Source of the DNA: Escherichia phage DT571/2
Reading direction: 5' to 3' (one strand)
Length of the DNA: 64,000 nt
Sequence record: NC_047749.1
Positions within the stretch are counted from its first letter, which is position 1; every line of letters begins with the position of its first letter. The position numbers and the translations under genes are program-made. Shown here piece after piece: positions 4,425-64,000 of this stretch. Below the pieces are notes generated by a model. That model saw nothing but the letters and a program-made list of their open reading frames with translations. It had not been told where the DNA came from and searched no databases.

Positions 4425-7214
4425 GTGTTTTCTATCCTCCAAGGTCACGCCGGGTTTTCTCGTGATTTAGCAACAGGTATTTGGCGAGAAATCAAAGCGG
4501 GAGATTATACCTTTGCCAAGCGATTCTCGAAAGAGCATCCAGAAGGTAAACCAGCTTCTATGCCCTTCAAATTTGATGTAATAGAAGAGCACGACCCACA
4601 AAGCCTTGCAGAAATGTTACCACTTATGAGACGTTTAACGTCTGACCCTCATATCGTTGCGGTACGAGGTCGATGTCTTGCACCTAAAAATAATGTGCGA
4701 CGTAAGAAAGATAACTTTAATGTATCTAATCCTAGTAATATTATTGCTATGGACGTGGATGGTATCCTAGATACCGGTGGGTACGACAAATTTAATCTTG
4801 TTGGTATGGCCCGCCACATTATTAAGATGTTGAATAGTATTAGTGAGGATATGTTTCCTCTTGATGCAGGCTTTATAGCTCATGCATCATCTTCGGCTGG
4901 GCTAAAACCAGGTATCCGAATGCACTTAATACTAGAATCTAACGTCAAGGTAACTCAGGGTCAGCTAAAGTTCTTATTTACATCTATCAATGATAGTAGT
5001 AAGCAAAAATTTGGTTTTGATATTGCCGACCTAGCTTATTACTCATCTGTCCAGCTCCACTATTTTGCCGACCCCTTATTTAGCGATGGTATTGTTGATC
5101 CGTTTAAAGCGGAGAGTAAGCCACGTCTGGTGTATGTTAAAGGCTCAAAAGTAAACTTACCTAATAATCTAGTTGACTATGAAACAACTAGAGGAGAGTT
5201 TAAAGAGGAATTCTACTCTTTACTCGATCAAATTAAAGGCAAAAAGATTGCTTCTGATAAAGTAGAAGAAACCATCAGCGAGTTAGAAGAGGCTGATGAT
5301 GGAGTGTACTTGCGTATTATCCCCAAACTATACCATAGAGCATTAGAGGATGGTGTTGATTTTGAATGGCTAGAACGTGAGATTAAACCAGCTTTATCTG
5401 AATATATTGCAACTAAAGATAACAGTCGTAATATTCAAGATTACTTTAATAACGGTCGCAAGCAGGCTCTCAAAGCGTTTGTTAATAATTCTAAACGTGA
5501 GATTCCACCAAATCTGAAAGGTGTTCCACTTAAGAAATTAGAAGTGGATTCTCCACCAGAAGTTCCGTACCTGAAGATTAACATTGTGCCCCCAAAAGGT
5601 CATATAACATTTGTTAAGGCAAGTCTTGGTACGGGTAAAACTACGGCAGTAACTAAATGGCTGGACGCAGGTGTTCTTCCGGGCAACTTTTTAGCAGTTA
5701 CAAATACTAGAGCACTGGTATCTTCAAATGCCAAGAAATTTAGTGCAGGACAATACGATAAGTCTGTAGATATGCTCAACTTTAAACGTGGGGCTATTGA
5801 TCGTATGTCCACAACTATTCACTCTTTGCATAAGTTCAAAAGTTTTATTGGGCAAATAGACACCATTTTTATTGATGAATGTGACGCTGTAATGAATGAC
5901 CTATTATTCGCCCCTGTTGTTAAACAACGTCGCGAGTGTATTCAAGTTCTACGTGACATCCTCATGACAGCTAAGACTGTAATCTTATCCGATGGTGATA
6001 TTAGTGCGGAAACAATTGAAGCATATGGTTCTTTGATTGAGTTCGATAAACCAGTTGCATTTTACAATCACCACCGTAAAATGTTATCAAAGGCTCATGC
6101 TTATGAATTCCCTGATGAATCCAGTATTTGGGTTGCACTTCAGACTTCTCTAGAGATGGGTGAGAAATCTATTCTAGTATCTGATTGTGGTCCTGATGAG
6201 CTGAATGAGAAGGGTATGGCACTACGTCGTAATACTGGTGCATTAGTTAAAGAAATCCATTCAAACTCCACTTCAGATGTGGATATTCGACGTATTCTGG
6301 ATTATACAACTAATGAGCTAATTGATCAACAAATTGATTGCTTATTATGTAGTCCATCCGTAACGAGTGGAGTTGACTTTAACTATTTTGATAACGTATT
6401 TGTTATTACTAGAACCAGTAATCAGGCGCCAAACATGCGTTTTCAAGCAATCAGGCGCGACCGTGGTGCTCAGAATATCTATTATTTTATTGATAAATCC
6501 ACTAGTGGATTCTCTGCGGGTTCTGAACAATATAATATCGATGAAGGTTGGCTGGAGTTAGCACAGCAATTATATGCACGTCGCAGGGAGCTGGAGTCTA
6601 GGAACTATACTAGTACTTTACGTTATTACTTGCTTGATCAGGGTGCAACTATTGATATTTTCAGTGAAAGCTGGGGAACTATTGAAGGTGCTGGTAAAGA
6701 ATACACAGAAGAGCGAATCAAAGCTATTCTACATTCAACTCCTGATTATTGTGCTCCACGTCATGCGGATGCGTATGAGGCTAAACTACTTATTGTTCGC
6801 TATTATCATCTTGAGTCTATTAAAGATGTAACAGTTGAGCATGTTGAACAATATATCAAAGATAAGCCGAATGATCGAGCTGCATTCTTCCATAAGATGC
6901 ACGAGATGTTCTGGGAAGATATTAAGAAGTGTTCAAATGTGACCATTAAACCATTCATAGAAGCTCTGAAAGGTAAGAAGAAAGATTTCTTCCTTAAAAC
7001 AGGTCAGAGTGCTAACCCAAAATATGCTAGAATGTATCTTGGTATGATGGGTATTGGTAAAGATATGAACACGGAGAATATCGTAGACTGGTATAGAACC
7101 TACTGCAAAATCGAATGTATGCCAATCCCTCTCAAATTCATGACTGAAGAAGAGAAGGCTATGGCAGAAGAAGCAATGTCAGAACTAGGTGCTAGAAATG
7201 ACAGTGAAGAATAA
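4425..7214 (+). CDS. 929-aa Walker A/B ATPase-helicase, putative replication initiator/origin-binding-type protein
   Basis: GTG start with SD acaggag 7 nt upstream; Walker A SLGTGKTT and Walker B FIDECD in the C-terminal half; N-terminal half has DVDG (DxD) and GIRMH motifs compatible with a primase-polymerase-like domain. Confidence 0.6.
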   Translation: MFSILQGHAGFSRDLATGIWREIKAGDYTFAKRFSKEHPEGKPASMPFKFDVIEEHDPQSLAEMLPLMRRLTSDPHIVAVRGRCLAPKNNVRRKKDNFNVSNPSNIIAMDVDGILDTGGYDKFNLVGMARHIIKMLNSISEDMFPLDAGFIAHASSSAGLKPGIRMHLILESNVKVTQGQLKFLFTSINDSSKQKFGFDIADLAYYSSVQLHYFADPLFSDGIVDPFKAESKPRLVYVKGSKVNLPNNLVDYETTRGEFKEEFYSLLDQIKGKKIASDKVEETISELEEADDGVYLRIIPKLYHRALEDGVDFEWLEREIKPALSEYIATKDNSRNIQDYFNNGRKQALKAFVNNSKREIPPNLKGVPLKKLEVDSPPEVPYLKINIVPPKGHITFVKASLGTGKTTAVTKWLDAGVLPGNFLAVTNTRALVSSNAKKFSAGQYDKSVDMLNFKRGAIDRMSTTIHSLHKFKSFIGQIDTIFIDECDAVMNDLLFAPVVKQRRECIQVLRDILMTAKTVILSDGDISAETIEAYGSLIEFDKPVAFYNHHRKMLSKAHAYEFPDESSIWVALQTSLEMGEKSILVSDCGPDELNEKGMALRRNTGALVKEIHSNSTSDVDIRRILDYTTNELIDQQIDCLLCSPSVTSGVDFNYFDNVFVITRTSNQAPNMRFQAIRRDRGAQNIYYFIDKSTSGFSAGSEQYNIDEGWLELAQQLYARRRELESRNYTSTLRYYLLDQGATIDIFSESWGTIEGAGKEYTEERIKAILHSTPDYCAPRHADAYEAKLLIVRYYHLESIKDVTVEHVEQYIKDKPNDRAAFFHKMHEMFWEDIKKCSNVTIKPFIEALKGKKKDFFLKTGQSANPKYARMYLGMMGIGKDMNTENIVDWYRTYCKIECMPIPLKFMTEEEKAMAEEAMSELGARNDSEE

Positions 7215-8977: not shown

Positions 8978-9265
8978 ATGAATAAACAAGAAATTATCTC
9001 CGCATGTGAAGCCCATAATGAGTTCTACCTTCATTATGAGAAACTACGCCAAAAGGGTACTACATACCTTCAGGGTACTATGGATTTTTCTGATAAGTAC
9101 CTAAGTAAACGTTTTGCTCAGGAGCGTATCCGTCAACCAAAAGATGACGAAATTCTAGTGTTTAGTCGCACTAATGACAGCTTCCGATTTATTCCTGTTG
9201 CGAAAGTTCGTCGCATTACGAGCCTTCAGTCAGAGTTAGATCGTGCTTCTCCAGTAGGCCGATAA
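8978..9265 (+). CDS. Hypothetical protein (95 aa)
   Basis: RBS gggagattatac-ATG; followed by terminator. Confidence 0.45.
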   Translation: MNKQEIISACEAHNEFYLHYEKLRQKGTTYLQGTMDFSDKYLSKRFAQERIRQPKDDEILVFSRTNDSFRFIPVAKVRRITSLQSELDRASPVGR

Positions 9266-9275
9266 GAAACCAATT

Positions 9276-9300
9276 AGCCCCTATATGGGGCTTTTTGTGT
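9276..9300 (+). terminator. Rho-independent terminator
   Basis: Stem agcccc/ggggct, loop tatat, followed by ttttt. Confidence 0.6.
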
Positions 9301-9315
9301 ATTTGAGAAACGTAA

Positions 9316-9624
9316 ATGAGCGATCAGGTAAACCAAAACTATGAAGGACACGTTGATGATCAGTCAATCCTTCTATGGGAAAGAGAAGGGGAACAAATAA
9401 GATTGACAGTATCTGAATTTCGTGGGAATCTATACATGGGAATTAGGTATTGGCTCCAGGATATTACTGGAGAATGGTTTCCAACGAAATCCGGCTTCTC
9501 TTTTCCGTACACTCTAGAAACTACTTCACAGCTATTCTATGCTTTTACGCAAATCCTTAGTGAATCTGAGGTTTTACATGAAGTACAGAAACGAGCTGAA
9601 GAACTCAAAGCCAAGAATGCCTAG
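9316..9624 (+). CDS. Hypothetical protein (102 aa)
   Basis: ORF with downstream terminator; no motifs. Confidence 0.45.
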   Translation: MSDQVNQNYEGHVDDQSILLWEREGEQIRLTVSEFRGNLYMGIRYWLQDITGEWFPTKSGFSFPYTLETTSQLFYAFTQILSESEVLHEVQKRAEELKAKNA

Positions 9625-9640
9625 TTCTTGGCTTTTTCTT
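9611..9640 (+). terminator. Rho-independent terminator
   Basis: Stem gccaagaa/ttcttggc followed by tttttcttt. Confidence 0.6.
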
Positions 9641-9651
9641 TATAAATGTAT

Positions 9652-9680
9652 TTGCTTTCAACTCAGTTTTGTTATATAAT
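9652..9680 (+). promoter_or_regulatory. T5-type sigma70 promoter
   Basis: ttgctt 9652-9657, 17-bp spacer, tataat 9675-9680, leader atttatataaattaatgagagg. Confidence 0.65.
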
Positions 9681-9694
9681 ATTTATATAAATTA

Positions 9695-9910
9695 ATGAGA
9701 GGATCAATCATGGCAATGACAATAACACTTCCCAAGATTCAAGCAAAACTTAATCTACTTTCCACAGCACGCATTAATTATCAAGATAACATAGGCACAG
9801 TAAATCAAAAGGCGTACAAAGATGCGTTTCTGAAAGAATCTGCTGATTTGATGGATATGGTTACACAATATAATAAAGAACTCAAGATGGAAATCGCCGA
9901 TGATGACTAA
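9695..9910 (+). CDS. Hypothetical protein (71 aa)
   Basis: RBS gagagga; ATGA overlap with ligase subunit A start. Confidence 0.45.
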   Translation: MRGSIMAMTITLPKIQAKLNLLSTARINYQDNIGTVNQKAYKDAFLKESADLMDMVTQYNKELKMEIADDD

Positions 9911-10874
9911 TGTAAAAGAATTTATTAAACGCTGTCAAGAAGCATATTATCAAGGCATGTCTTTAATCTCTGATGAAGAATATGATCGCCTGGTAAAACG
10001 CTTCCCGTTAGAGGAAGAGATCGGGCCTAAGGGTGATATTCCACATCTATACCGTATGTATTCTTTACAGAAAGTTTATTATAATCGTGGAGATAAACCC
10101 CCATTTAACCCGTTAGGTCAAGTAGAAACTGATAAGTTAGATGGTTGTGCAATTTCCCTGCTATATATTAATGGCGAATTTGTTCAAGCACTAACTCGTG
10201 GTAATGGTATTCTGGGAAATGATGTCACAAGCAACGTAAGATTGCTGAACATCCCTAAAAAGATTTCTCAAAAAGTACCTACTCAAATCACTGGTGAAGT
10301 TCTAATTACAAAAGAAGTAGAAAATAAACGTAACTTTGCCTCTGGTGCTATTAACCTCAAAGATAGTGATGATTTCGTACAGCGTATCGGGGAAGGTGGT
10401 TTAATCTTCGTTGCATACGGTATCCAGTGTTCTGCTGAATCTGTAGGTATTACAGAAGCGTATTTAAAAGATATGCTTTGGCTAGAGAATGAGAACTTCT
10501 TAACAGTTGTTAATGTACGTTCCTTCTTTAAATGGATTCCAACGGACGGTAAAGTTGTTCGTATTAATGATAACAACAAATTCTTCCGTGAAGGCTGGAC
10601 TAATAAATTTCCTCGCGGTGCATTTGCTATTAAAGAGGATGAAGAAGGTGAGACTACAACTCTTACTAAAGTTGAATGGAATGTAGGGGCTTCTGGTAAA
10701 GTAACTCCAGTCGGTTATTTTGAACCAGTAATTATTGATGATGCTACAATTGTTAAAGCGACTCTTAATAACGTTGATTATATTAACTCTCTCGATCTAG
10801 AGATCGGTTGCCAGATTCGAGTGATTCGTGCTGGTGGTGTAATCCCGTGCATAGTAGAACGAGTATACGATTAA
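9900..10874 (+). CDS. NAD-dependent DNA ligase, N-terminal subunit (adenylation + OB domains)
   Basis: LigA-like N-terminus (ISDEEYDRL), adenylation lysine motif KLDGCA, OB-fold-like C-terminus; no Zn-finger, HhH or BRCT. Confidence 0.75.
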   Translation: MMTNVKEFIKRCQEAYYQGMSLISDEEYDRLVKRFPLEEEIGPKGDIPHLYRMYSLQKVYYNRGDKPPFNPLGQVETDKLDGCAISLLYINGEFVQALTRGNGILGNDVTSNVRLLNIPKKISQKVPTQITGEVLITKEVENKRNFASGAINLKDSDDFVQRIGEGGLIFVAYGIQCSAESVGITEAYLKDMLWLENENFLTVVNVRSFFKWIPTDGKVVRINDNNKFFREGWTNKFPRGAFAIKEDEEGETTTLTKVEWNVGASGKVTPVGYFEPVIIDDATIVKATLNNVDYINSLDLEIGCQIRVIRAGGVIPCIVERVYD

Positions 10875-21813: not shown

Positions 21814-23632
21814 GACACTAAAATTTAGTAACGTTATGTCTTACGGTAAAGACATCGTAATTCATTTCGATAAGAATCCAGTTACTCAACTAATTGGCGG
21901 CAATGGACTAGGGAAATCCACCATCGCTACGGTTATAGAAGAGCTATTCTATAATAAAAATTCTCGAGGTATCAAGAAGGATGCATTGTTCTCTTGGAAT
22001 GCCCCTAAGAAAGAATACGATATGCACGCTTATTTCTCGAAAGATGATGATGAGTATGAGCTGCATAAAGTAGTTAAGTCAACTGCTAAAGTAACGTTGA
22101 TTAAGAATGGGGAAGATATTAGTGGGCATACGGCAACCCAAACATACAAGATGATCGAAGAGATTATGGGTGGTGACTTTCAAACATTCACCAAACTGAT
22201 TTATCAATCAGTGGGTTCCAACCTAGACTTTCTAAAAGCAACGGATGCAACACGTAAGGCTTTTCTTGTTAATTTGTTCAATCAAGAGCAATACAAAGAA
22301 ATGTCGGAAACTATTAAGGCTGACCGTAAAGAAATAGCAAATACCTTAAATAATTTGCAGGGCCAAATGGCTGTAATTACGAAAATCCTTAATGGAAAAA
22401 ATAATCTAGGAACTTTGCAGGAACCCGTAGAAGTGCCGGAGTTTGATGAAGAGCCATTAGCACAAGAACTTACTGAATCGAAAATTAAGGCGGCATTAGC
22501 CAAGTCACAAGAGGCTAATATTACTAAGTTGCGTAATTTGGACAAAGCTGTACAAGTTGCCGAACAATCTTTCGAACCTTTCAAAAATTTGCCCGCGCCC
22601 ACCGACCAAAATGAAGAGATCTCGAGTGTTACGCGTGACCTAACGATTGTGACCTCACGTGCGAGCGAAGTTAAGAAACGTTATCAGAAGTTCAAGCAAG
22701 AGGCTTCAAATACTGAATGCCCTACTTGCGGTACTCATCTGGATACAACTGCTGCTCAAAAAGCAATGGATATGGCTAGAACAGAATATGATCCTCTGTT
22801 CAAAGAGAAGCAATCTCTTGAAGCTAAGCTAGAACAGTTGAAGAAAGAACAACTTGAGTACGTTGCGTATACTAGAGCAAAGGATGCTTTGGATAAAGCA
22901 GTGGTAGCTAGAGACGAGTTCAAAAATTCAATGAGTGATGCTTCTTTTGAAGAACTCAATGTGCAAATCCTACAGGTGCAAATCCGACAATTAGAACAGG
23001 AAATCGCTGATGGCCGCTCTAAGGTTGCAATTGCCAAAGAGCATAATGCAAATGTCGAATTAGCCAATGCAAAATATAAAGCAAAGCTAGAACAGATTGA
23101 GAAAGCTGAAGCAGAAATGTCTGAGATTACTTCCAAACTTGATGGAGTAGCCGAAGCTGTAGCTGATCTCGATATTCTAATTGCTGCATTGAAAAATCTG
23201 GTGGGATATAAACTAGAACATAGTGTGAAAGTATTTGAAGAACTAATTAATAAATACCTTTCCATTATGACTGGCGGTAAATTCGCACTTGGATTTGAAC
23301 TTGATGAAACAAAATTACAAGTAGTAATCTTCAATGATGGAAACCGTACCAGTATGGAGAACTGCTCTACTGGTCAGCAAAGTCGAATTAATCTAGCAAC
23401 CCTGCTAGCTATTCGGATGCTGTTAACCTCTATTAGTAAAGTTAATATTAATCTTCTATTCCTTGATGAAGTAATTAGCTTTATTGATACGAAAGGACTT
23501 GATACTCTCGTTGAACTATTAAATGAGGAAGAAAGTCTAAATTCTATCATTGTTTCTCACGGGCATACGCATCCATTGGCTCATAAGATTACTGTCAAGA
23601 AAGATGCAGAAGGATTTTCCTACTTAGAATAA
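21794..23632 (+). CDS. SbcC/Rad50-like ATPase subunit
   Basis: Walker A GGNGLGKST, long coiled-coil with central CPTCGT zinc-hook, C-terminal Walker B LLFLDEV and VSHG. Start at ATG 21794 chosen over track start 21713. Confidence 0.75.
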   Translation: MSKITIKTLKFSNVMSYGKDIVIHFDKNPVTQLIGGNGLGKSTIATVIEELFYNKNSRGIKKDALFSWNAPKKEYDMHAYFSKDDDEYELHKVVKSTAKVTLIKNGEDISGHTATQTYKMIEEIMGGDFQTFTKLIYQSVGSNLDFLKATDATRKAFLVNLFNQEQYKEMSETIKADRKEIANTLNNLQGQMAVITKILNGKNNLGTLQEPVEVPEFDEEPLAQELTESKIKAALAKSQEANITKLRNLDKAVQVAEQSFEPFKNLPAPTDQNEEISSVTRDLTIVTSRASEVKKRYQKFKQEASNTECPTCGTHLDTTAAQKAMDMARTEYDPLFKEKQSLEAKLEQLKKEQLEYVAYTRAKDALDKAVVARDEFKNSMSDASFEELNVQILQVQIRQLEQEIADGRSKVAIAKEHNANVELANAKYKAKLEQIEKAEAEMSEITSKLDGVAEAVADLDILIAALKNLVGYKLEHSVKVFEELINKYLSIMTGGKFALGFELDETKLQVVIFNDGNRTSMENCSTGQQSRINLATLLAIRMLLTSISKVNINLLFLDEVISFIDTKGLDTLVELLNEEESLNSIIVSHGHTHPLAHKITVKKDAEGFSYLE

Positions 23633-56038: not shown

Positions 56039-56773
56039 TTACGCTACTTTTAATTTCTCAATATATTGTTGTGGGCTGCAACTATATTCTGCGCGCTCCT
56101 CCTCGGTCATACCTTCCCAACATAATTGCAAGCGGTCGGCTAGGAACTGATAATCATTATCATCTTCAAGAGATTCATCAATAAAGGTTTCGCCGATCAA
56201 TGTGACGCCTATTGATAGAATATCGTTAACGGCTTGCGCGTCCAGCGTTTTAAATCCATATGCCGCCGCCGCTGATAATACGCCTTTATGATCATCAATC
56301 ATCGTGAAATCAGCGTTCGGATATAGCTGTTTGAATAGCTCAAAATAATGGCTTTTATATATAGCGTCTTTACTGTGGTATATTTCGCTAACCTTATCAG
56401 CCGTAAAATATTTGTGAAGTGTATCGCGGGAAAATACGCGGATATTGCTATTCCCACGCCCTCGCAGACCTTGTTTGCGCAAATAATAATAATCCGACTT
56501 ACTCATCAGGCGAGCGGTGCAAATAATGTTTAACGTGTTGGCGTCATTCATGCATTGGCGCATATAGGTAACGAGCGGCAAAAGCGTATCCTGCATTATT
56601 AACTCATGTTTGCACGCTTCATTTTTATACTTATTTAAATCTAAATCGCCTTCAATATCAAAGCAAGGCGCTACACGGTGGGCGGAGTTAATGATCGTGC
56701 CGTCCAGATCCCAAATCATTACGCGGGAAATATGCGGGTAATTGCGGGAAATATTCTTTTTATCTTGATTCAT
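56039..56773 (-). CDS. dmp: 5'-deoxyribonucleotidase (HAD family; T5 dmp-like, 244 aa)
   Basis: HAD motif I IWDLDGTI near the N-terminus; 244 aa; pre-early-region context. Confidence 0.7.
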   Translation of the reverse strand: MNQDKKNISRNYPHISRVMIWDLDGTIINSAHRVAPCFDIEGDLDLNKYKNEACKHELIMQDTLLPLVTYMRQCMNDANTLNIICTARLMSKSDYYYLRKQGLRGRGNSNIRVFSRDTLHKYFTADKVSEIYHSKDAIYKSHYFELFKQLYPNADFTMIDDHKGVLSAAAAYGFKTLDAQAVNDILSIGVTLIGETFIDESLEDDNDYQFLADRLQLCWEGMTEEERAEYSCSPQQYIEKLKVA

Positions 56774-60509: not shown

Positions 60510-61132
60510 ATCGTCGTCTCCTTATAAGGTTAATAAGTTTGCCGCCGATGGGCTTTAAAATGCACCTGATTTTTAAAGAGCGCGGCGGTAAACTTTCCGC
60601 CGTGTAGTTCGTCATTGCCGCCCTACGAGATAAATAATAGGGAATACCCAAAAAAGGTGCAACCTTAATTTTGTAAAGAAATGTAAAGAAAGCAAATACC
60701 CGCACCGCGTCCGGCGATCGCCCAAGTTTAAAGGAAACAGGCGCGCGGATACCATAAAACCGAGCTGATTGGCAAGTAATTTTTTCATTTTTATTTGCCT
60801 TGCCCTACTTGACAAAACTTAAAAAGCTCGTGGTGACGATAAACGGGCTATCCCTTTATGATGGGATACCTGAAAAATTTACCGCGTTGTAGGACGTTTT
60901 AGGCCGCTTATCTTCGATTTAACAAATATTTAACAAAAGCAAAATTGAAAAATAGTTTGAGAAGGTATTGACTTTTTAAAATCAAGACTAAACGAGTTAT
61001 TTTAAAAAATTAATTAATTGACTTTTATTTGTTGTTGTGTAGTAGAAAGATAGCAGACTAATAATTGCTAGAATGATAATCATGCTGGTGATTGTAACAG
61101 ACTGAACTATTAGCAGACTACTGATCCCGGAA

Positions 61133-61176
61133 AATCTCATTAGCCAACTAACTATCTCATTAGCCAACTAACTATT
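61133..61176. repeat. Direct repeat 2 x ~21 bp (ctcattagccaactaactat)
   Basis: Two adjacent copies. Confidence 0.8.
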
Positions 61177-61185
61177 TCATAAGTT

Positions 61186-61365
61186 ATAATAACTATAAAA
61201 ATAATCACCGTTAAAATAATCACTATAAAAATAATCACCATTAAAATAATAACTATAGAAATAATCACCATTATAATAATCACCATTAAAATAATCACTA
61301 TAAAAATAATCACCATTAAAATAATCACTATAAAAATAATCACCATTATTATAATCACTATAAGA
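61186..61365. repeat. Tandem array, ~12 copies of a 15-bp AT-rich unit (ATAATCAC[C/T][A/G]TTAAA / ATAATCACTATAAAA)
   Basis: Contiguous 15-bp periodicity read directly from the sequence. Confidence 0.9.
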
Positions 61366-61401
61366 AACTATCGGCTTAAGTGAGAACCACTATCATTTAA
61401 G

Positions 61402-61510
61402 TTATCCACAACGTTATCCACAGCACAAAATGATTTGACACGATAGGCGGCGATATAAAGATTTATCCACAGACTTATCCACAGGTTATCCTACTGTATA
61501 TTTATCCAGG
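61402..61510. promoter_or_regulatory. DnaA-box cluster (4 perfect TTATCCACA plus 2 variants)
   Basis: TTATCCACA at 61402, 61414, 61463, 61475; variants ttatcctac 61486 and ttatccagg 61502. Confidence 0.8.
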
Positions 61511-61880
61511 GTAAAAAGATAGTGTTTACAACTGCAATCAATTTTGAGCGGCCTAAAACGCTTTCTAACGAGCTGATCGCTGTAGGGTAATATTAAAGTA
61601 AAGCCTTTACCCGTCGGCCTAGAGGCTTCGCCGTGTTTTGCTCTTTACTGCACCGCTGCGCGGTTAGCATAAAACTAGGTGTTAGGCAAGAAAAATAAAA
61701 AGTAAAGTAAACGTTGCCCCTAGAAAGAAAATAATTTTACCGGTAACATCGAAAGCGGGTAATAATTAACCTAATGTAAAGTTTTGTAAGGCCCGCCATA
61801 ATCAGCGGCCTTTTTTGTTATACTGCCCTTACACCGTTTAAGGACGGTTAAAAATTTCCCGAAAAATTTGGAGGCTTAAA

Positions 61881-62060
61881 ATGGTTATTTTTCGATCTAT
61901 TCTGGCGGGTATCTTGGGCGCTATTTTAACTCTATTTGCTACCGCTTACGGTATTCAAGATTCTTATTGCGGTTTAGTAAATACTAAACCTATGGTTATT
62001 ATTGGCGCGGGTATCGCTGTTTTTTCTTATTTGCTGGGCTGCATGAATAAAGGAGAATAA
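61881..62060 (+). CDS. Small membrane protein (59 aa)
   Basis: SD ggagg 6 nt upstream of ATG; two hydrophobic helices. Confidence 0.45.
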   Translation: MVIFRSILAGILGAILTLFATAYGIQDSYCGLVNTKPMVIIGAGIAVFSYLLGCMNKGE

Positions 62061-62062
62061 AA

Positions 62063-62275
62063 ATGATCCGCAACGTTTCTCTTGCTCGTTCCAAAGGTTT
62101 TAAGCTGGTGGATGTAAACACGTTCGAGCGTCCTGGTTGTAAAATCGAATATATAGCGCGGAATAAAAACGCTTTCCGCGTTACAGAAAAGAGATTCGAT
62201 AAACGCGGCAACGTGATAGCTGAAACGGTTAAATATTTTGCCACCTTTTACGCGGCCTTTCGTGGGGTATTATGA
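62063..62275 (+). CDS. Hypothetical protein (70 aa)
   Basis: SD aaggaga; part of a tightly packed small-gene operon. Confidence 0.45.
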   Translation: MIRNVSLARSKGFKLVDVNTFERPGCKIEYIARNKNAFRVTEKRFDKRGNVIAETVKYFATFYAAFRGVL

Positions 62276-62397
62276 AGAGCGTTGTTATTGTTATCCTTGC
62301 AATGGTTGGCGGTTTTACCACCACCTTGTTTAGAAATGATCCTCTTTTGCTAGGGATCTTTATGCTTTTATCTGGTTATCTGATCGGGAGGTTATAA
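62272..62397 (+). CDS. Small membrane protein (41 aa)
   Basis: ATGA overlap with the previous ORF; hydrophobic. Confidence 0.35.
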   Translation: MKSVVIVILAMVGGFTTTLFRNDPLLLGIFMLLSGYLIGRL

Positions 62398-62398
62398 A

Positions 62399-62743
62399 AT
62401 GGTGATTTATGAAGGTGATCGCCTTGTTGCTGATTGCCGTCCGGCATTGTTAGCAAACTACTTAAACCAGCTTTCGCCAGTATATAAAGGCGTTATAAAT
62501 ATTTATGAAGGCGGGGCGCATTATAAGATTAATGCGGTCGTTGCCCGTGAACTAGCGTTTCAATTTTTAACCTTTTCATCTTGCAATATTCAGGTCATGG
62601 GTGAGGCGTTAATTGCAGAAAATGAAGATGATTTTATTAATATCTTTCGCAAGATATGCACCGAGCGCCTGATAATGAAAGGGGCATATATTCAATCCAC
62701 TGCGGATAGTATTGAAACGGCTTTTCGAAAGGTGGCACAATGA
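62399..62743 (+). CDS. Hypothetical protein (114 aa)
   Basis: SD gggagg 7 nt upstream. Confidence 0.45.
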   Translation: MVIYEGDRLVADCRPALLANYLNQLSPVYKGVINIYEGGAHYKINAVVARELAFQFLTFSSCNIQVMGEALIAENEDDFINIFRKICTERLIMKGAYIQSTADSIETAFRKVAQ

Positions 62744-62848
62744 AGCTATATATTTTCGCGGGTAATGTTGAGGCTGCAAATGATTCCGCTGGTGGCGATA
62801 GCGTTCGCCATTATTGGCAAAATTATATTTACTAGGCGTAATGATCAC

Positions 62849-62903
62849 GGGGCACAACTATCAGGGAGTGCCCCTGATTCTCAAATGAGAATCATTCTCA
62901 TTT
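62849..62903. repeat. Hairpin (ggggcac/gtgcccc) followed by a perfect 21-bp palindrome aaatgagaatcattctcattt
   Basis: Palindrome at 62883-62903 is related to the 23-bp array units downstream. Confidence 0.8.
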
Positions 62904-63136
62904 GACCGCGCCCGCGATGGTTAGCACACTAATGATTAGGGTGTTACGTGTCGCCTTGTGTGATCGTTAGCGGGCTAACTAATTTTCAAGCCTCCTCCAG
63001 ATTTGCCCTTGTTTTAGTATCCCCATCAAAATAAAACGCGTTAGAAAGCGATTCAGGGCGTTTTAGGCCTATATTAGAATTATTCACTGCGTAGGAATAC
63101 TGTATATTTATACAGTAGAATAACCTGGGGATAAGT

Positions 63137-63208
63137 CGGTGGATAACGCTTCAAAATGGCTAGAATTTTGTCAAGGCAAATCGTGCTGTTGATAAGTCTG
63201 TGGATAAC
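63137..63208. promoter_or_regulatory. Second DnaA-box group, opposite orientation (tgtggataa)
   Basis: gtggataac 63139-63147 (8/9) and perfect tgtggataa 63200-63208. Confidence 0.65.
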
Positions 63209-63240
63209 TTAAATAACAGTGTTTCTCACTTCCGTTTTTA

Positions 63241-63505
63241 AATGCGAATCATTATCATTTGCATTCCACTTCTTAAATGAGAATCATTTCACTTCTTGAA
63301 TAGTTCTCATTCCCTTTCTTAAATGAGAATCATTTCACTTCTTGAATAGTTCTCATTTCACTTCTTGAATAGTTCTCATTCCACTTCTTAAATGAGAATC
63401 ATTCCACTTCTTAAATGAGAATCATTCCACCTCTTAAATGAGAATGATTATCATTCGCATTCCACTTCTTAAATGCGAATGATAATCATTCTCATTCGCA
63501 TTCCG
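63241..63505. repeat. Tandem array of ~9 copies of a 23-bp unit in two variants, flanked by palindromic aatg(c/a)gaat..attcgcatt elements
   Basis: Variants CCACTTCTTAAATGAGAATCATT and TCACTTCTTGAATAGTTCTCATT. Confidence 0.9.
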
Positions 63506-63509
63506 GCGA

Positions 63510-63755
63510 GCAGGGCAATTGCCCTGCGCTTATGTGCAAATCCGACAATTGCTCCAAGGGTTACGCGAGGGCATGTATGTGCAAATCCGACCCATTTTTT
63601 GGTAGTGTGCAAATCCGACCCCAAAAATTTATAAATTCGTGAGAGTGACAAATCTGTCTCCCAAAAACTCCAGCAATCACGAACTGCGTTCGAATCCTGT
63701 GGGGTATGTGCAAATCCGACACGGTTTTTCTAGGATTAAGATGTGCGAATCCGAT
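63510..63755. repeat. 18-bp palindrome gcagggcaattgccctgc plus 5 dispersed copies of the 14-mer TGTGCAAATCCGAC
   Basis: 14-mer at 63533, 63578, 63606, 63707 and variant tgtgcgaatccgat at 63742. Confidence 0.85.
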
Positions 63756-64000
63756 GAAATTTTTGTGACTTCGATGAGAGGGTGTGTGATTGTATAGGTT
63801 TGAGGAGAAGATGAGAGAGCGAGAAAAATTTTGGGGCTAGAAGTGTATGGGCGCAGGATTGGTGCGGAGCACCTGATTTGCGGGGGTTTTGGGGGATAGT
63901 GGAGATAATTTGGGGAAATTTGAGATAGGTGCAGAAAAAGTAAAATTTTATTAGCTAAAGGGGGCAATATAGCTTGACAATTGAAAATTCTTGTGGCTCT

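Follow-up and report, generated by a model that had tools for sequence, protein, structure and literature searches.

Mirror-image DnaA-box modules and a LexA-type palindrome in the injection stop region of a T5-like phage

Elements of the right terminal repeat

The window analyzed here, 64,000 nucleotides of Escherichia phage DT571/2 (NC_047749.1), is 99.9% identical to phage DT57C. Since its base 64000 aligns to T5 position 10140, and the annotated T5 LTR ends at 10139, the window ends at the right genome terminus, and the repeat-rich region near its end therefore lies in the right terminal repeat. The pre-early operon dmp–A1–A2 is annotated upstream of the repeats. Window positions 63006-64000 align end to end with T5 9238-10140 at 80% identity, and this T5 stretch is annotated as "injection stop signal (iss)" in AY543070. 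The individual T5 repeats are named in AY587007 (Wang et al. 2005), and each named feature was projected onto window coordinates. The region comprises the following elements (strand in parentheses, with a dot for features given no strand):

61134-61180 (+): 20-bp direct repeat (ATCTCATTAGCCAACTAACT), 2.3 copies; leftmost repeat of the zone that separates the divergent pre-early operons
61186-61358 (+): AT-rich 15-bp array, 11.5 copies, 17% GC, non-coding; two unit types alternate (30-bp super-unit)
61379-61509 (+): left arm (T5 IRC-spacer-IRD), with four perfect DnaA boxes in two pairs
61536-61560 (+): IRB', partner of the inverted repeat at 60895-60919 (T5 IRB/IRB')
61881-62835 (+): rightward pre-early operon of five small genes, homologues of T5.013-T5.015/ORF017
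62884-62904 (.): perfect 21-bp palindrome AAATGAGAATCATTCTCATTT, i.e., AAATGAGAAT-C-ATTCTCATTT; DRC-type, terminator-like, directly after the operon
63098-63117 (.): palindrome D, near-consensus candidate LexA (SOS) box TACTGTATATTTATACAGTA, 19/20 match
63100-63230 (−): right arm, T5 IRD'-spacer-IRC'; four DnaA-type boxes
63236-63502 (+): DRC/DRE array with palindromes E-I; 23-bp unit in 8.2 copies, 35-bp unit in 2.1
63510-63529 (+): palindrome J GCAGGGCAATTGCCCTGC, which overlaps CCCTGCGC; the T5 annotation gives the latter as the motif of the major 7.9% single-strand nick
63533-63755 (+): DRD 14-mer TGTGCAAATCCGAC, five copies in a single orientation (T5 DRD copies 1, 2, 3, 5 and 6)
63886-63924 (+): DRA copies 2 and 3, G-rich direct repeats, projected from AY587007
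63925-64000 (+): last 76 bases of the terminal repeat, from the T5 alignment

The order of these elements is that of T5: IRB/IRB', IRC-spacer-IRD, the rightward pre-early genes, palD and IRD'-spacer-IRC' with DRB1/2, followed after IRC' by the DRC/DRE copies with palindromes E-I, palindrome J with the nick motif, the DRD series, DRA and the repeat end. DT57C differs from T5 in lacking the genes hegG, T5.011 and T5.012 and the T5.016/017-palC segment, in carrying the DRC-type 21-bp palindrome in place of palC, and in having lost DRD copy 4. Its LTR, at 8081 bp, is the smallest among 25 phages (Davison 2020, bioRxiv 10.1101/866236), and the same region is present in BF23 (2023 BF23 paper). Judging from these alignments, the region is almost certainly the DT57C copy of the T5-type cis-acting LTR repeats (Repeat Regions 1-3), with its distal kilobase being the iss homologue. 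A sequence-only reading had noted a resemblance to the injection-stop/terminus region of T5; homology to the annotated iss supports this, as does conservation of the repeat families, which align with T5 and are kept among 29 T5-like genomes. The same reading had considered a host-derived insertion; the segment is not one, as a megablast search of 5,426 complete E. coli genomes gave no hit. The copy in the window is the right-end one, which is the last into the cell and unable to act as a stop itself; it is the same element as found once per concatemer junction. Because DT57C was among the T5-like phages analyzed earlier (Davison 2020), the region was already known, and this identification adds nothing to the literature.

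We then compared the repeats across the 29 T5-like genomes (28 distinct loci for the arms and 27 phages for the arm alignment). The DnaA boxes, 15-bp and 23-bp arrays, palindromes and 14-mer picked out by the sequence-only reading are all present, far above chance. The 15-bp array, put at about 12 copies, has 11.5 at 61186-61358; it is missing at this position in T5, approximately half of the relatives carry 2-5 copies of a 15/16/31-bp version, and the copy number of the AT-rich array ranges from 0 to 11.5 among them. The ORF annotated as "repeat completion protein" that covers this array has the translation VIIIMVIIFIVIIL... and no family match; we reject it as an annotation artefact, and the array is thus taken as non-coding. 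The 23-bp array was counted at about nine units and has 8.2 copies at 63262-63449 (approximately 4 in T5; approximately 2 to 8 between phages). Its units are indeed half-sites of the 21-bp palindrome at 62884-62904, the central base of which is C in the window versus G in GenBank KM979354. A perfect 25-bp inverted repeat (63437-63461 / 63472-63496) lies inside the DRC/DRE array. The palindromic array is kept in nearly all relatives, and the DT57C arrays are the most expanded of all loci compared.

The 18-bp palindrome reported earlier is palindrome J, at 63510-63527; it is recognizable in 21/29 genomes and the nick motif in 25/29. The five copies of the 14-mer TGTGCAAATCCGAC between 63533 and 63755 are likewise real, four being exact and one carrying 2 mismatches, against 0.21 expected at ≤2 mismatches. 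DRD repeats occur in 29/29 genomes, in 4-10 copies at conserved positions, and the family straddles the terminal-repeat boundary, with 6 copies inside and 3 outside in T5 and 5 inside and 3 outside in My1; in both phages the boundary sits in the largest DRD gap. By position, a part in packaging or in defining the terminus is more probable for the DRD repeats flanking this boundary than a part in the stop. As irregularly spaced direct repeats in one orientation, the DRD 14-mers resemble the repeat arrays of phage concatemer junctions and terminase sites (T7 terminal-repeat flanks, lambda cosB R sites).

Two modules around a variable operon

The two DnaA-box clusters form a single inverted repeat with arms of 132 nt (61378-61509 / 63100-63231), which are 77% complementary, lie 1590 nt apart and match T5 6022-6152 and 9332-9462. 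Perfect TTATCCACA boxes lie at 61402, 61414, 61463 and 61475 on the plus strand and at 63199 on the minus strand; all five perfect boxes of the 64-kb window fall inside this region, with approximately 0.75 expected from base composition. The minus-strand boxes at 63126, 63138 and 63187 carry one mismatch each. Together these form eight DnaA/DnaA*-type boxes in four pairs (61402/61414, 61463/61475, 63126/63138 and 63187/63199), with a 3-bp gap inside each pair (12 bp start to start) and pairs 61 nt apart. The sequence-only reading was right on the four perfect plus-strand boxes, but its two additional "near-perfect" ones, TTATCCTAC and TTATCCAGG, have 3 and 2 mismatches and share only TTATCC, the second belonging to a degraded LexA-like palindrome; its opposite-orientation cluster is present with four boxes rather than two. 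The long inverted repeat, this box count and 955 bp of coding sequence had been missed. The 2.6-kb stretch, described as non-coding, is so only in part: 61881-62835 holds five small genes, the products of which (59, 70, 41, 114 and 31 aa) match PHROG families at E values of 1e-23 to 1e-62. Chi octamers occur inside this operon at 62104 and 62788.

Each module consists of a DRC-like end, a DnaA-box pair, a 52-bp spacer, a second DnaA-box pair and a LexA-type palindrome. In the left arm, the outer end resembles a DRC unit and the inner end is the degraded LexA-like palindrome TACTGTATATTTATCCAGGG. The two 131-bp modules flank the rightward pre-early operon as mirror images and enclose it in every phage despite its variable gene content. 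Both arms were found in 28/28 distinct loci, at inter-arm distances of 1.7 to 4.1 kb, and across 27 phages they align over 131 columns without a gap. Right-arm identity is 87-97% in 26/28 loci and 70-75% in the two most divergent. The eight paired boxes had already been reported in 25 T5-like phages, including DT57C, and Type 4 phages lack IRC and IRD (Davison 2020). Phages can apparently do without the left arm, as in Type 4 and perhaps in T5 deltaL-deltaR, a viable mutant with a deletion given as "hegG to 017", without coordinates, which would remove this arm if it is one contiguous deletion.

We next asked how the arms vary. Several box positions drift only within TTWTNCACA (e.g., TTTTACACA / TTATCCACA / TTTTGCACA), and from this confinement the box sites look selected. 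In the right arm, conservation is 0.94 over the whole 131 bp and 0.937 over the boxes, so that more than the DnaA boxes is constrained. Identity between the two arms is 0.769 within a phage and 0.766 between phages, whereas the same arm compared across phages reaches 0.87 (left) and 0.93 (right); the spacer sequence is not the same in the two arms, but its length of 52 bp is kept. Since the arms evolve independently, a selected hairpin is argued against. Together, these comparisons suggest that the long inverted repeat is most likely a pair of independently conserved, predicted protein-binding platforms rather than a hairpin.

A LexA-type companion of the DnaA boxes

A panel of 30 consensus sites for host factors was scored against shuffled sequence. 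DnaA, LexA and Fur stood clearly above it, while a single Chi octamer was marginal. Palindrome D matches TACTG(TA)5CAGTA at 19/20 positions with its CTGT-N8-ACAG core intact (0.01 expected at ≤3 mismatches), and 0/200 shuffles matched the LexA consensus as well. The match is 18-19/20 in the right arm of 29/29 T5-like genomes; the left-arm LexA-like site of DT57C is degraded. The pairing of a DnaA box with a LexA box was also seen in phage My1 and in Proteus, Aeromonas, Klebsiella and two lineages of Vibrio phages. In the first four distant phages tested, 6/6 CTGT-N8-ACAG sites lay at most 300 nt from a perfect DnaA box, with a joint chance of approximately 1e-6. A predicted LexA-type operator thus pairs with DnaA boxes across Demerecviridae.

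In its consensus match, palindrome D is like the LexA operators of Gammaproteobacteria. It is unlike them in that it overlaps no recognized promoter (one weak promoter-like match, 9/12, runs over it at 63106-63079 on the minus strand) and in that the phage carrying it is strictly virulent. In phages, an SOS box is usually associated with a lysogenic switch or with genes of the colicin type. Since recA1 DH5alpha serves as a propagation host for T5-like phages (host field of ESCO40), LexA cleavage cannot be required. We could find no mention of a LexA site in T5-like modules in Davison 2020 or the accessible literature, a search outside of which Heusterspreute 1987 and Davison 2015 fell; a near-consensus LexA-type site in the DnaA modules is apparently new to print.

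The Fur signal, scored with the consensus GATAATGATAATCATTATC and the 7-1-7 form TGATAATNATTATCA, comes from the 25-bp inverted repeat, each arm of which matches at 16/19. The best Fur match in relatives has 2 to 5 mismatches. A perfect 7-1-7 core also lies inside dmp, where it is accounted for by the sequence coding for DDNDYQ, and an AT-rich motif of this kind thus arises easily.

Candidate functions of the modules

The explanation that we favor combines the iss-region identity with modules that are candidate platforms for host proteins, to which we give a probability of roughly 0.55. The platforms would act through bound protein and not through base-paired structure. On the left-end copy, the first into the cell, host DNA-binding proteins would assemble on both modules at the cytoplasmic face, with DnaA on the eight boxes, as proposed by Davison, and probably LexA on palindrome D. 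That this binding arrests the DNA is conceivable, although we would put it somewhat below even odds. In T5 the stop maps to this region, shear experiments having shown the first-step halt there, and a DnaA-tether model is already in the literature. Against arrest, binders in the cytoplasm would be expected to act as a ratchet that draws DNA inward and does not halt it, unless anchored in the membrane. The apparent dispensability of the left arm, the constraint on the right arm beyond its boxes, growth on a recA1 host and the degraded left-arm LexA-like site also count against this mechanism. At rather less than even odds, the iss modules of T5-like phages, and more broadly of Demerecviridae, may be composite landing pads for several global DNA-binding proteins of the host and not DnaA alone. 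DnaA boxes and a near-consensus LexA operator would here be joined by an adjacent Fur-like palindromic array, and LexA would be part of a complex holding, marking or regulating the first-step DNA of a strictly virulent phage.

Other explanations draw on the same elements. The DNA itself could jam at the envelope through hairpins or cruciforms, with no host protein involved, as later authors relay from Heusterspreute et al. 1987. Folded as a single strand, 63225-63530 reaches -61 kcal/mol versus -22 ± 3.5 for shuffles (z = -11), and the fold contains the perfect 25-bp hairpin and palindrome J; conservation of the palindromic array in nearly all relatives also agrees with such a model, and secondary structure is still an option in the 2026 PNAS discussion. 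Nevertheless, the 23-bp copy number varies between phages, and neither compensatory nor concerted evolution is seen in the long arms. Transiting or packaged DNA would be duplex in the narrow tail tube, and cruciform extrusion requires negative supercoiling, which would be absent from a linear, end-free segment. Ejection into FhuA proteoliposomes runs to completion in vitro (Davison 2020), and the DNA alone therefore does not stop itself; we consider a purely structural stop improbable. The DRC palindromes, palindromes D-J, or both could instead be recognition or cleavage sites for the phage proteins A2 and A1, which would cut or release the DNA to restart transfer and afterwards circularize the repeats, as in the restriction-type model of Davison. 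According to the literature, second-step transfer needs both A1 and A2, and A2 binds DNA as a dimer; palindromes such as AATGAGAAT-C-ATTCTCATT are favored by dimeric binders. The model takes A1 to be a nuclease-like metallophosphatase, and it suits an element that lies in both terminal repeats, with a DRC-like unit at the outer end of the left arm too. No Pfam domains were found in A1 or A2 to guide prediction, however, and in an Aeromonas phage, the A1 of which is only approximately 33% identical, the 15-mer TGAGAATGATTATCA is found again exactly, a recurrence that a conserved host factor would explain no less readily than a phage protein evolving fast. Sites for A1 and A2 are, in our estimate, unlikely but worth keeping in view.

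A role in transcription would leave the stop specified elsewhere or not by sequence, with DnaA, LexA and perhaps Fur using the modules as operators or insulators to control the divergent pre-early operons or isolate them topologically, for instance in the A1-dependent pre-early shut-off. All three are classical transcription regulators, the divergent pre-early promoters have the left arm between them, the right arm follows just beyond the rightward operon and its terminator-like palindrome, and the arms enclose the operon whatever its content. Yet by our own arithmetic the T5 sites lie approximately 200 bp from annotated promoters, not over them, promoter-like matches in the region are at background (11 vs. 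9.8 expected), and the pre-early genes are expressed at once, despite near-consensus repressor sites, while host DNA is destroyed early; such a role is also unlikely, and a little more so than sites for A1 and A2. A replication origin, which the sequence-only reading had suggested as an alternative, found no support. In DT57C the consensus DnaA-box cluster adjoins the 17%-GC tandem array, and a resemblance to oriC box clustering was noted by Davison 2020. As in E. coli oriC, datA and DARS, multiple consensus boxes stand in fixed phase; unlike those loci, the modules lack duplex-unwinding 13-mers and a GATC cluster and form two mirror copies 1.6-4 kb apart. No oriC-type 13-mer occurs within 2 mismatches in the non-coding parts, GATC stands at 3.4 per kb versus 2.8 in the whole window with zero in the arms, no skew inflection attributable to an origin is seen at the site, and most relatives, T5 included, have a short AT-rich array or none. 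No Rep or initiator gene is adjacent, the neighbors being pre-early host-takeover genes. T5 origins map near the genome center, and the replication genes lie in second-step DNA that is not expressed during first-step transfer (Davison 2020). An iteron origin was rejected as well, the unit being 15 bp versus 17-22 bp for iterons, with a variable copy number, no counterpart in T5 and no Rep gene nearby. A DnaA-dependent or iteron-type origin is thus very improbable.

For T5, an account of the injection pause at 8% of the genome has been wanting since the 1960s, a point repeated in papers from 2023 to 2026: functional studies were called lacking in the 2023 BF23 paper, and the stop mechanism is termed poorly understood in the 2026 PNAS paper. 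The present analysis narrows the hypotheses, favoring independent platforms over a hairpin, with boxes that drift within the DnaA consensus and a predicted LexA-type companion found family-wide.

Position of the region and its correspondence to T5

The 3-kb stretch around the repeat-rich zone at 61130-63760 is 99.9% identical to phage DT57C (KM979354.1, Tequintavirus), and 526 phage records match it, chiefly T5-like phages of Salmonella, Escherichia and Klebsiella. Since window position 61000 corresponds to position 5085 of the DT57C record, which holds one repeat copy only, the window overruns the record end and re-enters its start. Window base 64000 aligns with T5 position 10140, the annotated end of the T5 left terminal repeat being 10139; the window end is therefore the right genome terminus, and the region lies in the right terminal repeat, directly downstream of the pre-early genes dmp, A1 and A2. 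This repeat spans ~8,085 bp of the window (Davison gives 8,081 bp for the DT57C LTR, the smallest of the family) and differs from GenBank DT57C at two positions over 8,085 bases, one of which (62893, C vs G) is the midpoint base of a perfect palindrome at 62884-62904. The possibility that the segment is a host-derived insertion, raised in the sequence-only reading, was ruled out by megablast, which returned zero matches among 5,426 complete E. coli genomes.

All of the repeat families described from the sequence are present, in counts above chance expectation. Five perfect TTATCCACA boxes occur in the 64 kb, all inside the region, while ~0.75 are predicted from base composition. TRF resolved a 15-bp unit in 11.5 copies (61186-61358) and a 23-bp unit in 8.2 copies (63262-63449), and the 14-mer, known as DRD in T5, occurs as four exact copies plus one with two mismatches (0.21 expected at ≤2 mismatches). 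Each of the two DnaA-box clusters is one arm of a 132-nt inverted repeat (61378-61509 and 63100-63231), and the cluster in the opposite orientation, credited with two boxes, in fact holds four. The description of the region as non-coding was correct for the 15-bp array but not for 61881-62835 (955 bp), between the arms, which is an operon of five small conserved genes. GenBank places a CDS over the array, the 'repeat completion protein' DT57C_000008 (61152-61346, minus strand), whose translation, beginning VIIIMVIIFIVIIL, is a repeat of V/I/F/M only and has no PHROG family match. We therefore regard it as an annotation artefact, a repeat unit divisible by three keeping the frame open. An Rfam scan for structured RNA gave only sub-threshold chance matches, to the palindromes.

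In T5, this region is annotated feature by feature in AY587007, while 9140-10149 carries the label 'injection stop signal (iss)' in AY543070. We placed the named T5 features on the window through collinear alignment, and by this homology to the annotated iss the earlier suggestion of an injection-stop region of T5 terminal-repeat type was right.

T5 features placed on the window by collinear alignment
61379-61509: IRC-spacer-IRD
63098-63117: palindrome D
63100-63230: IRD'-spacer-IRC' with DRB1/2
63236-63502: DRC copies and palindromes E-I
63510-63527: palindrome J
63522-63529: 7.9% nick motif CCCTGCGC
five 14-mers: DRD copies 1, 2, 3, 5 and 6
63886-63924: DRA2/3

Compared with T5, DT57C is without hegG, T5.011, T5.012 and the T5.016/017-palC segment, carries a DRC-type 21-bp palindrome (62884-62904) where T5 has palC, and has lost DRD4. 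Two adjacent DRD-like 14-mers, TGTGCAAATCCTAC and GGTGCAAATCCGAC, separated by one base, were also found at 22960-22988 inside the tail-fibre gene ltfA, far from the terminal repeat; each has one mismatch, and the pair is unlikely by chance, with 0.21 matches expected per window at ≤2 mismatches.

Conservation of the arms and the question of an origin or a hairpin

Conservation was tested INDEPENDENTLY, the A2 protein being used to retrieve 38 loci from IMG/VR (A2 identity 66-96%). The repeat families are kept in related phages: both arms were found in every locus reaching far enough (28 of 28 distinct loci), and DRD in 29/29 genomes, its 4-10 copies lying at conserved offsets. Right-arm identity was 87-97% in 26/28 loci, falling to 70-75% in the remaining two, which are the most divergent (Klebsiella-type), while the left arm, in reverse orientation, showed 73-81%. 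The arms lie 1.7-4.1 kb apart in relatives; the 1.6 kb of DT57C is the shortest distance. Palindrome J was recognisable in 21/29 genomes and the nick motif in 25/29. Nearly all loci have the 23-bp and 35-bp arrays after the right arm; the 23-bp unit is repeated 2-5.7 times in relatives vs 8.2 times in DT57C. About half the relatives carry a short array (15/16/31-bp unit, 2-5 copies) adjoining the left arm on its left side; it is missing at this place in T5, and DT57C is the extreme with 11.5 copies (range 0-11.5). Both tandem arrays are copy-number-variable across the family, the largest versions seen being those of DT57C, which has the smallest terminal repeat.

The anatomy, homology and conservation of the region are matters of observation. 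Since Davison 2020 (bioRxiv 10.1101/866236) compared the same region in 25 T5-like phages, DT57C among them, the finding is a rediscovery and is already known, specifically for DT57C. That study reports eight paired DnaA boxes with a 3-bp gap inside the pairs and a constant 52-bp spacer, likens the region to oriC, proposes membrane-bound DnaA as a DNA tether, and attributes the first observation of DnaA boxes to the 1987 T5 sequence paper (Heusterspreute et al. 1987).

The alternative function suggested from the sequence, a replication origin, was rejected. The region contains no oriC-type 13-mers and is not enriched in GATC, no skew inflection was found at the site and no initiator gene near it, the AT-rich array is variable, and T5 replication origins have been mapped mid-genome (Davison 2020). 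As for the DnaA boxes themselves, the arm alignment revealed several box positions that vary solely at the degenerate sites of TTWTNCACA; for example, at one box 12 phages have TTTTACACA, 9 have TTATCCACA and 6 have TTTTGCACA, and at others TTATTAACA and TTATCAACA recur as alternatives. This substitution pattern suggests that a DnaA binding site has been preserved. Constraint in the right arm reaches beyond the boxes, since the entire 131 bp is equally conserved (0.94 vs 0.937 for the boxes).

An inverted repeat might also be kept in order to form a hairpin, in which case selected pairing predicts that the two arms of one phage should be more alike than arms of different phages. Arm-to-arm identity was, however, 0.769 within phages vs 0.766 between phages, with 130/2000 permutations reaching the observed value, and on this equality arm-to-arm pairing or gene conversion was rejected. 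Across phages, left arms resemble left arms (0.87) and right arms resemble right arms (0.93), and the spacers, unlike in sequence between one arm and the other, are both 52 bp long. From the within- vs between-phage identities and this separate descent, the arms are mirror-image copies of one site arrangement and not a stem. The palindromic array, treated as single-stranded DNA, has a very strong predicted fold (z = -11), but any palindrome would be expected to fold so, and extrusion in duplex DNA does not follow from it.

Candidate LexA sites beside the DnaA boxes

Palindrome D (TACTGTATATTTATACAGTA, 63098-63117), at the inner end of the right arm, agrees at 19/20 positions with the gammaproteobacterial LexA consensus TACTG(TA)5CAGTA, for which 0.01 matches with ≤3 mismatches are expected in the window. 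To guard against cherry-picking, a panel of 30 host-factor consensus sequences was run against 60850-64000 and 200 dinucleotide shuffles. DnaA (4/200 shuffles doing as well), LexA (0/200) and Fur (0/200) emerged clearly from the shuffles and one Chi octamer was borderline (7/200), while ArgR, Zur, CRP, TrpR and NagC, with AT-rich palindromic consensus sites, did not stand out in the same panel. The right-arm LexA box has one mismatch in 24/29 genomes and two in the other 5/29; the left-arm copy keeps its CTGT-N8-ACAG core in most genomes and is degraded in DT57C (61490-61509). Among the T5-like relatives, some phages have AA and others TT, its reverse complement, at the centre of palindrome D; neither of the intermediates, TA or AT (a perfect palindrome), was ever seen. 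This centre and the C/G difference at 62893 look like palindrome inversions rather than point mutations.

We then considered distant Demerecviridae chosen through A1 (31-73% identity): Pectobacterium My1, Proteus VTCCBPA139, Vibrio Thalassa, Vibrio D308, Aeromonas AhSzq-1 and Klebsiella Roth50. All six combine perfect DnaA boxes with CTGT-N8-ACAG boxes in non-coding DNA next to A2, and the mirrored order is kept in the My1, Proteus and Klebsiella phages. In the first four phages tested, 6/6 LexA-type sites lie ≤300 nt from a perfect DnaA box (product of chance fractions ~1e-6; ~0.2 of each motif expected per locus).

LexA-type sites in the loci of distant Demerecviridae (locus: positions)
L044: 7854, 11805
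L047: 6562, 10535
L045: 605
L049: 4165, 7264, 7941
L046 (AhSzq-1): 15286, 16640
L050: 4159, 8123

Rhizobium phage RHph_N2_6, whose host is an alphaproteobacterium and which has an A1 homologue, was uninformative as to whether LexA motifs track the host: it lacks both the motifs and any T5-like non-coding region, its A1 lying within a dense coding block. LexA, SOS, Fur and Chi are not mentioned in Davison 2020, and full-text literature searches, which did not cover the 1987 paper and Davison 2015, returned no T5-LexA link. A LexA-cleavage 'timer' for second-step transfer is disfavoured: T5-like phages are propagated on recA1 DH5alpha (ESCO40 host field), so LexA cleavage cannot be a requirement.

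The resemblance to Fur sites is weaker than the LexA case. Fur-like 16/19 matches (0.03 expected in the window) at 63440-63458 (-) and 63475-63493 (+) are both arms of one perfect 25-bp inverted repeat in the DRC array, and a further match lies at 61068-61086. In relatives the match has 2-5 mismatches, and conservation as a Fur site is only moderate; the exact 15-mer TGAGAATGATTATCA occurs again in AhSzq-1 (L046, 15431). A perfect 7-1-7 Fur core, TGATAATCATTATCA, lies in dmp (56143-56167, core 56148-56162), ~230 bp away from where the terminal repeat starts, and is present in most relatives and absent in My1. It spells the conserved peptide DDNDYQ in the phage's preferred codons, and its third-position conservation is only mildly raised (19/238 windows equally high). 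This box is probably a coding by-product, and that a perfect core can be DDNDYQ coding sequence indicates how easily the AT-rich Fur motif arises.

Chi octamers (GCTGGTGG) show a strand bias. The window has 4 on the plus strand (62104-62111, 62788-62795, 10830 and 12155) vs 0 on the minus strand, and the terminal-repeat zones of 29 related, and hence non-independent, genomes have 61 vs 2, at a density of ~2 per 10 kb vs ~0.15 expected. By the established polarity of Chi, the plus orientation here is that read by RecBCD coming from the right genome end. The bias could reflect right-end protection or inter-repeat recombination.

Proposed working of the modules

According to the T5 literature, DNA entry halts near here, with the first 7.9% of the genome inside the cell, until A1 and A2 have been made. 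We propose that both modules, i.e., the two arms with their DnaA-box pairs, may act as binding platforms for host proteins, with DnaA the best-supported candidate binder and LexA a strong new candidate, and that a host-protein complex on the left-end copy could mark or anchor the pause point. Against this, soluble proteins alone would not halt DNA entry. The palindromic array would be a putative site for a host factor or A2/A1, proteins in which no Pfam domains were found. A further limit on the platform view is that the left arm seems to be dispensable: it is missing from Davison's Type 4 phages and, probably, from the viable T5 deltaL-deltaR mutant, going by the deletion extent that we infer. 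For DRD, a role in terminus definition or packaging is more likely, since its copies flank the repeat boundary in T5 (6 inside, 3 outside) and My1 (5 inside, 3 outside). What remains of interest is that LexA and DnaA boxes are paired throughout the family, along with the evidence for a platform rather than a hairpin; both bring a long-standing question closer to direct testing.
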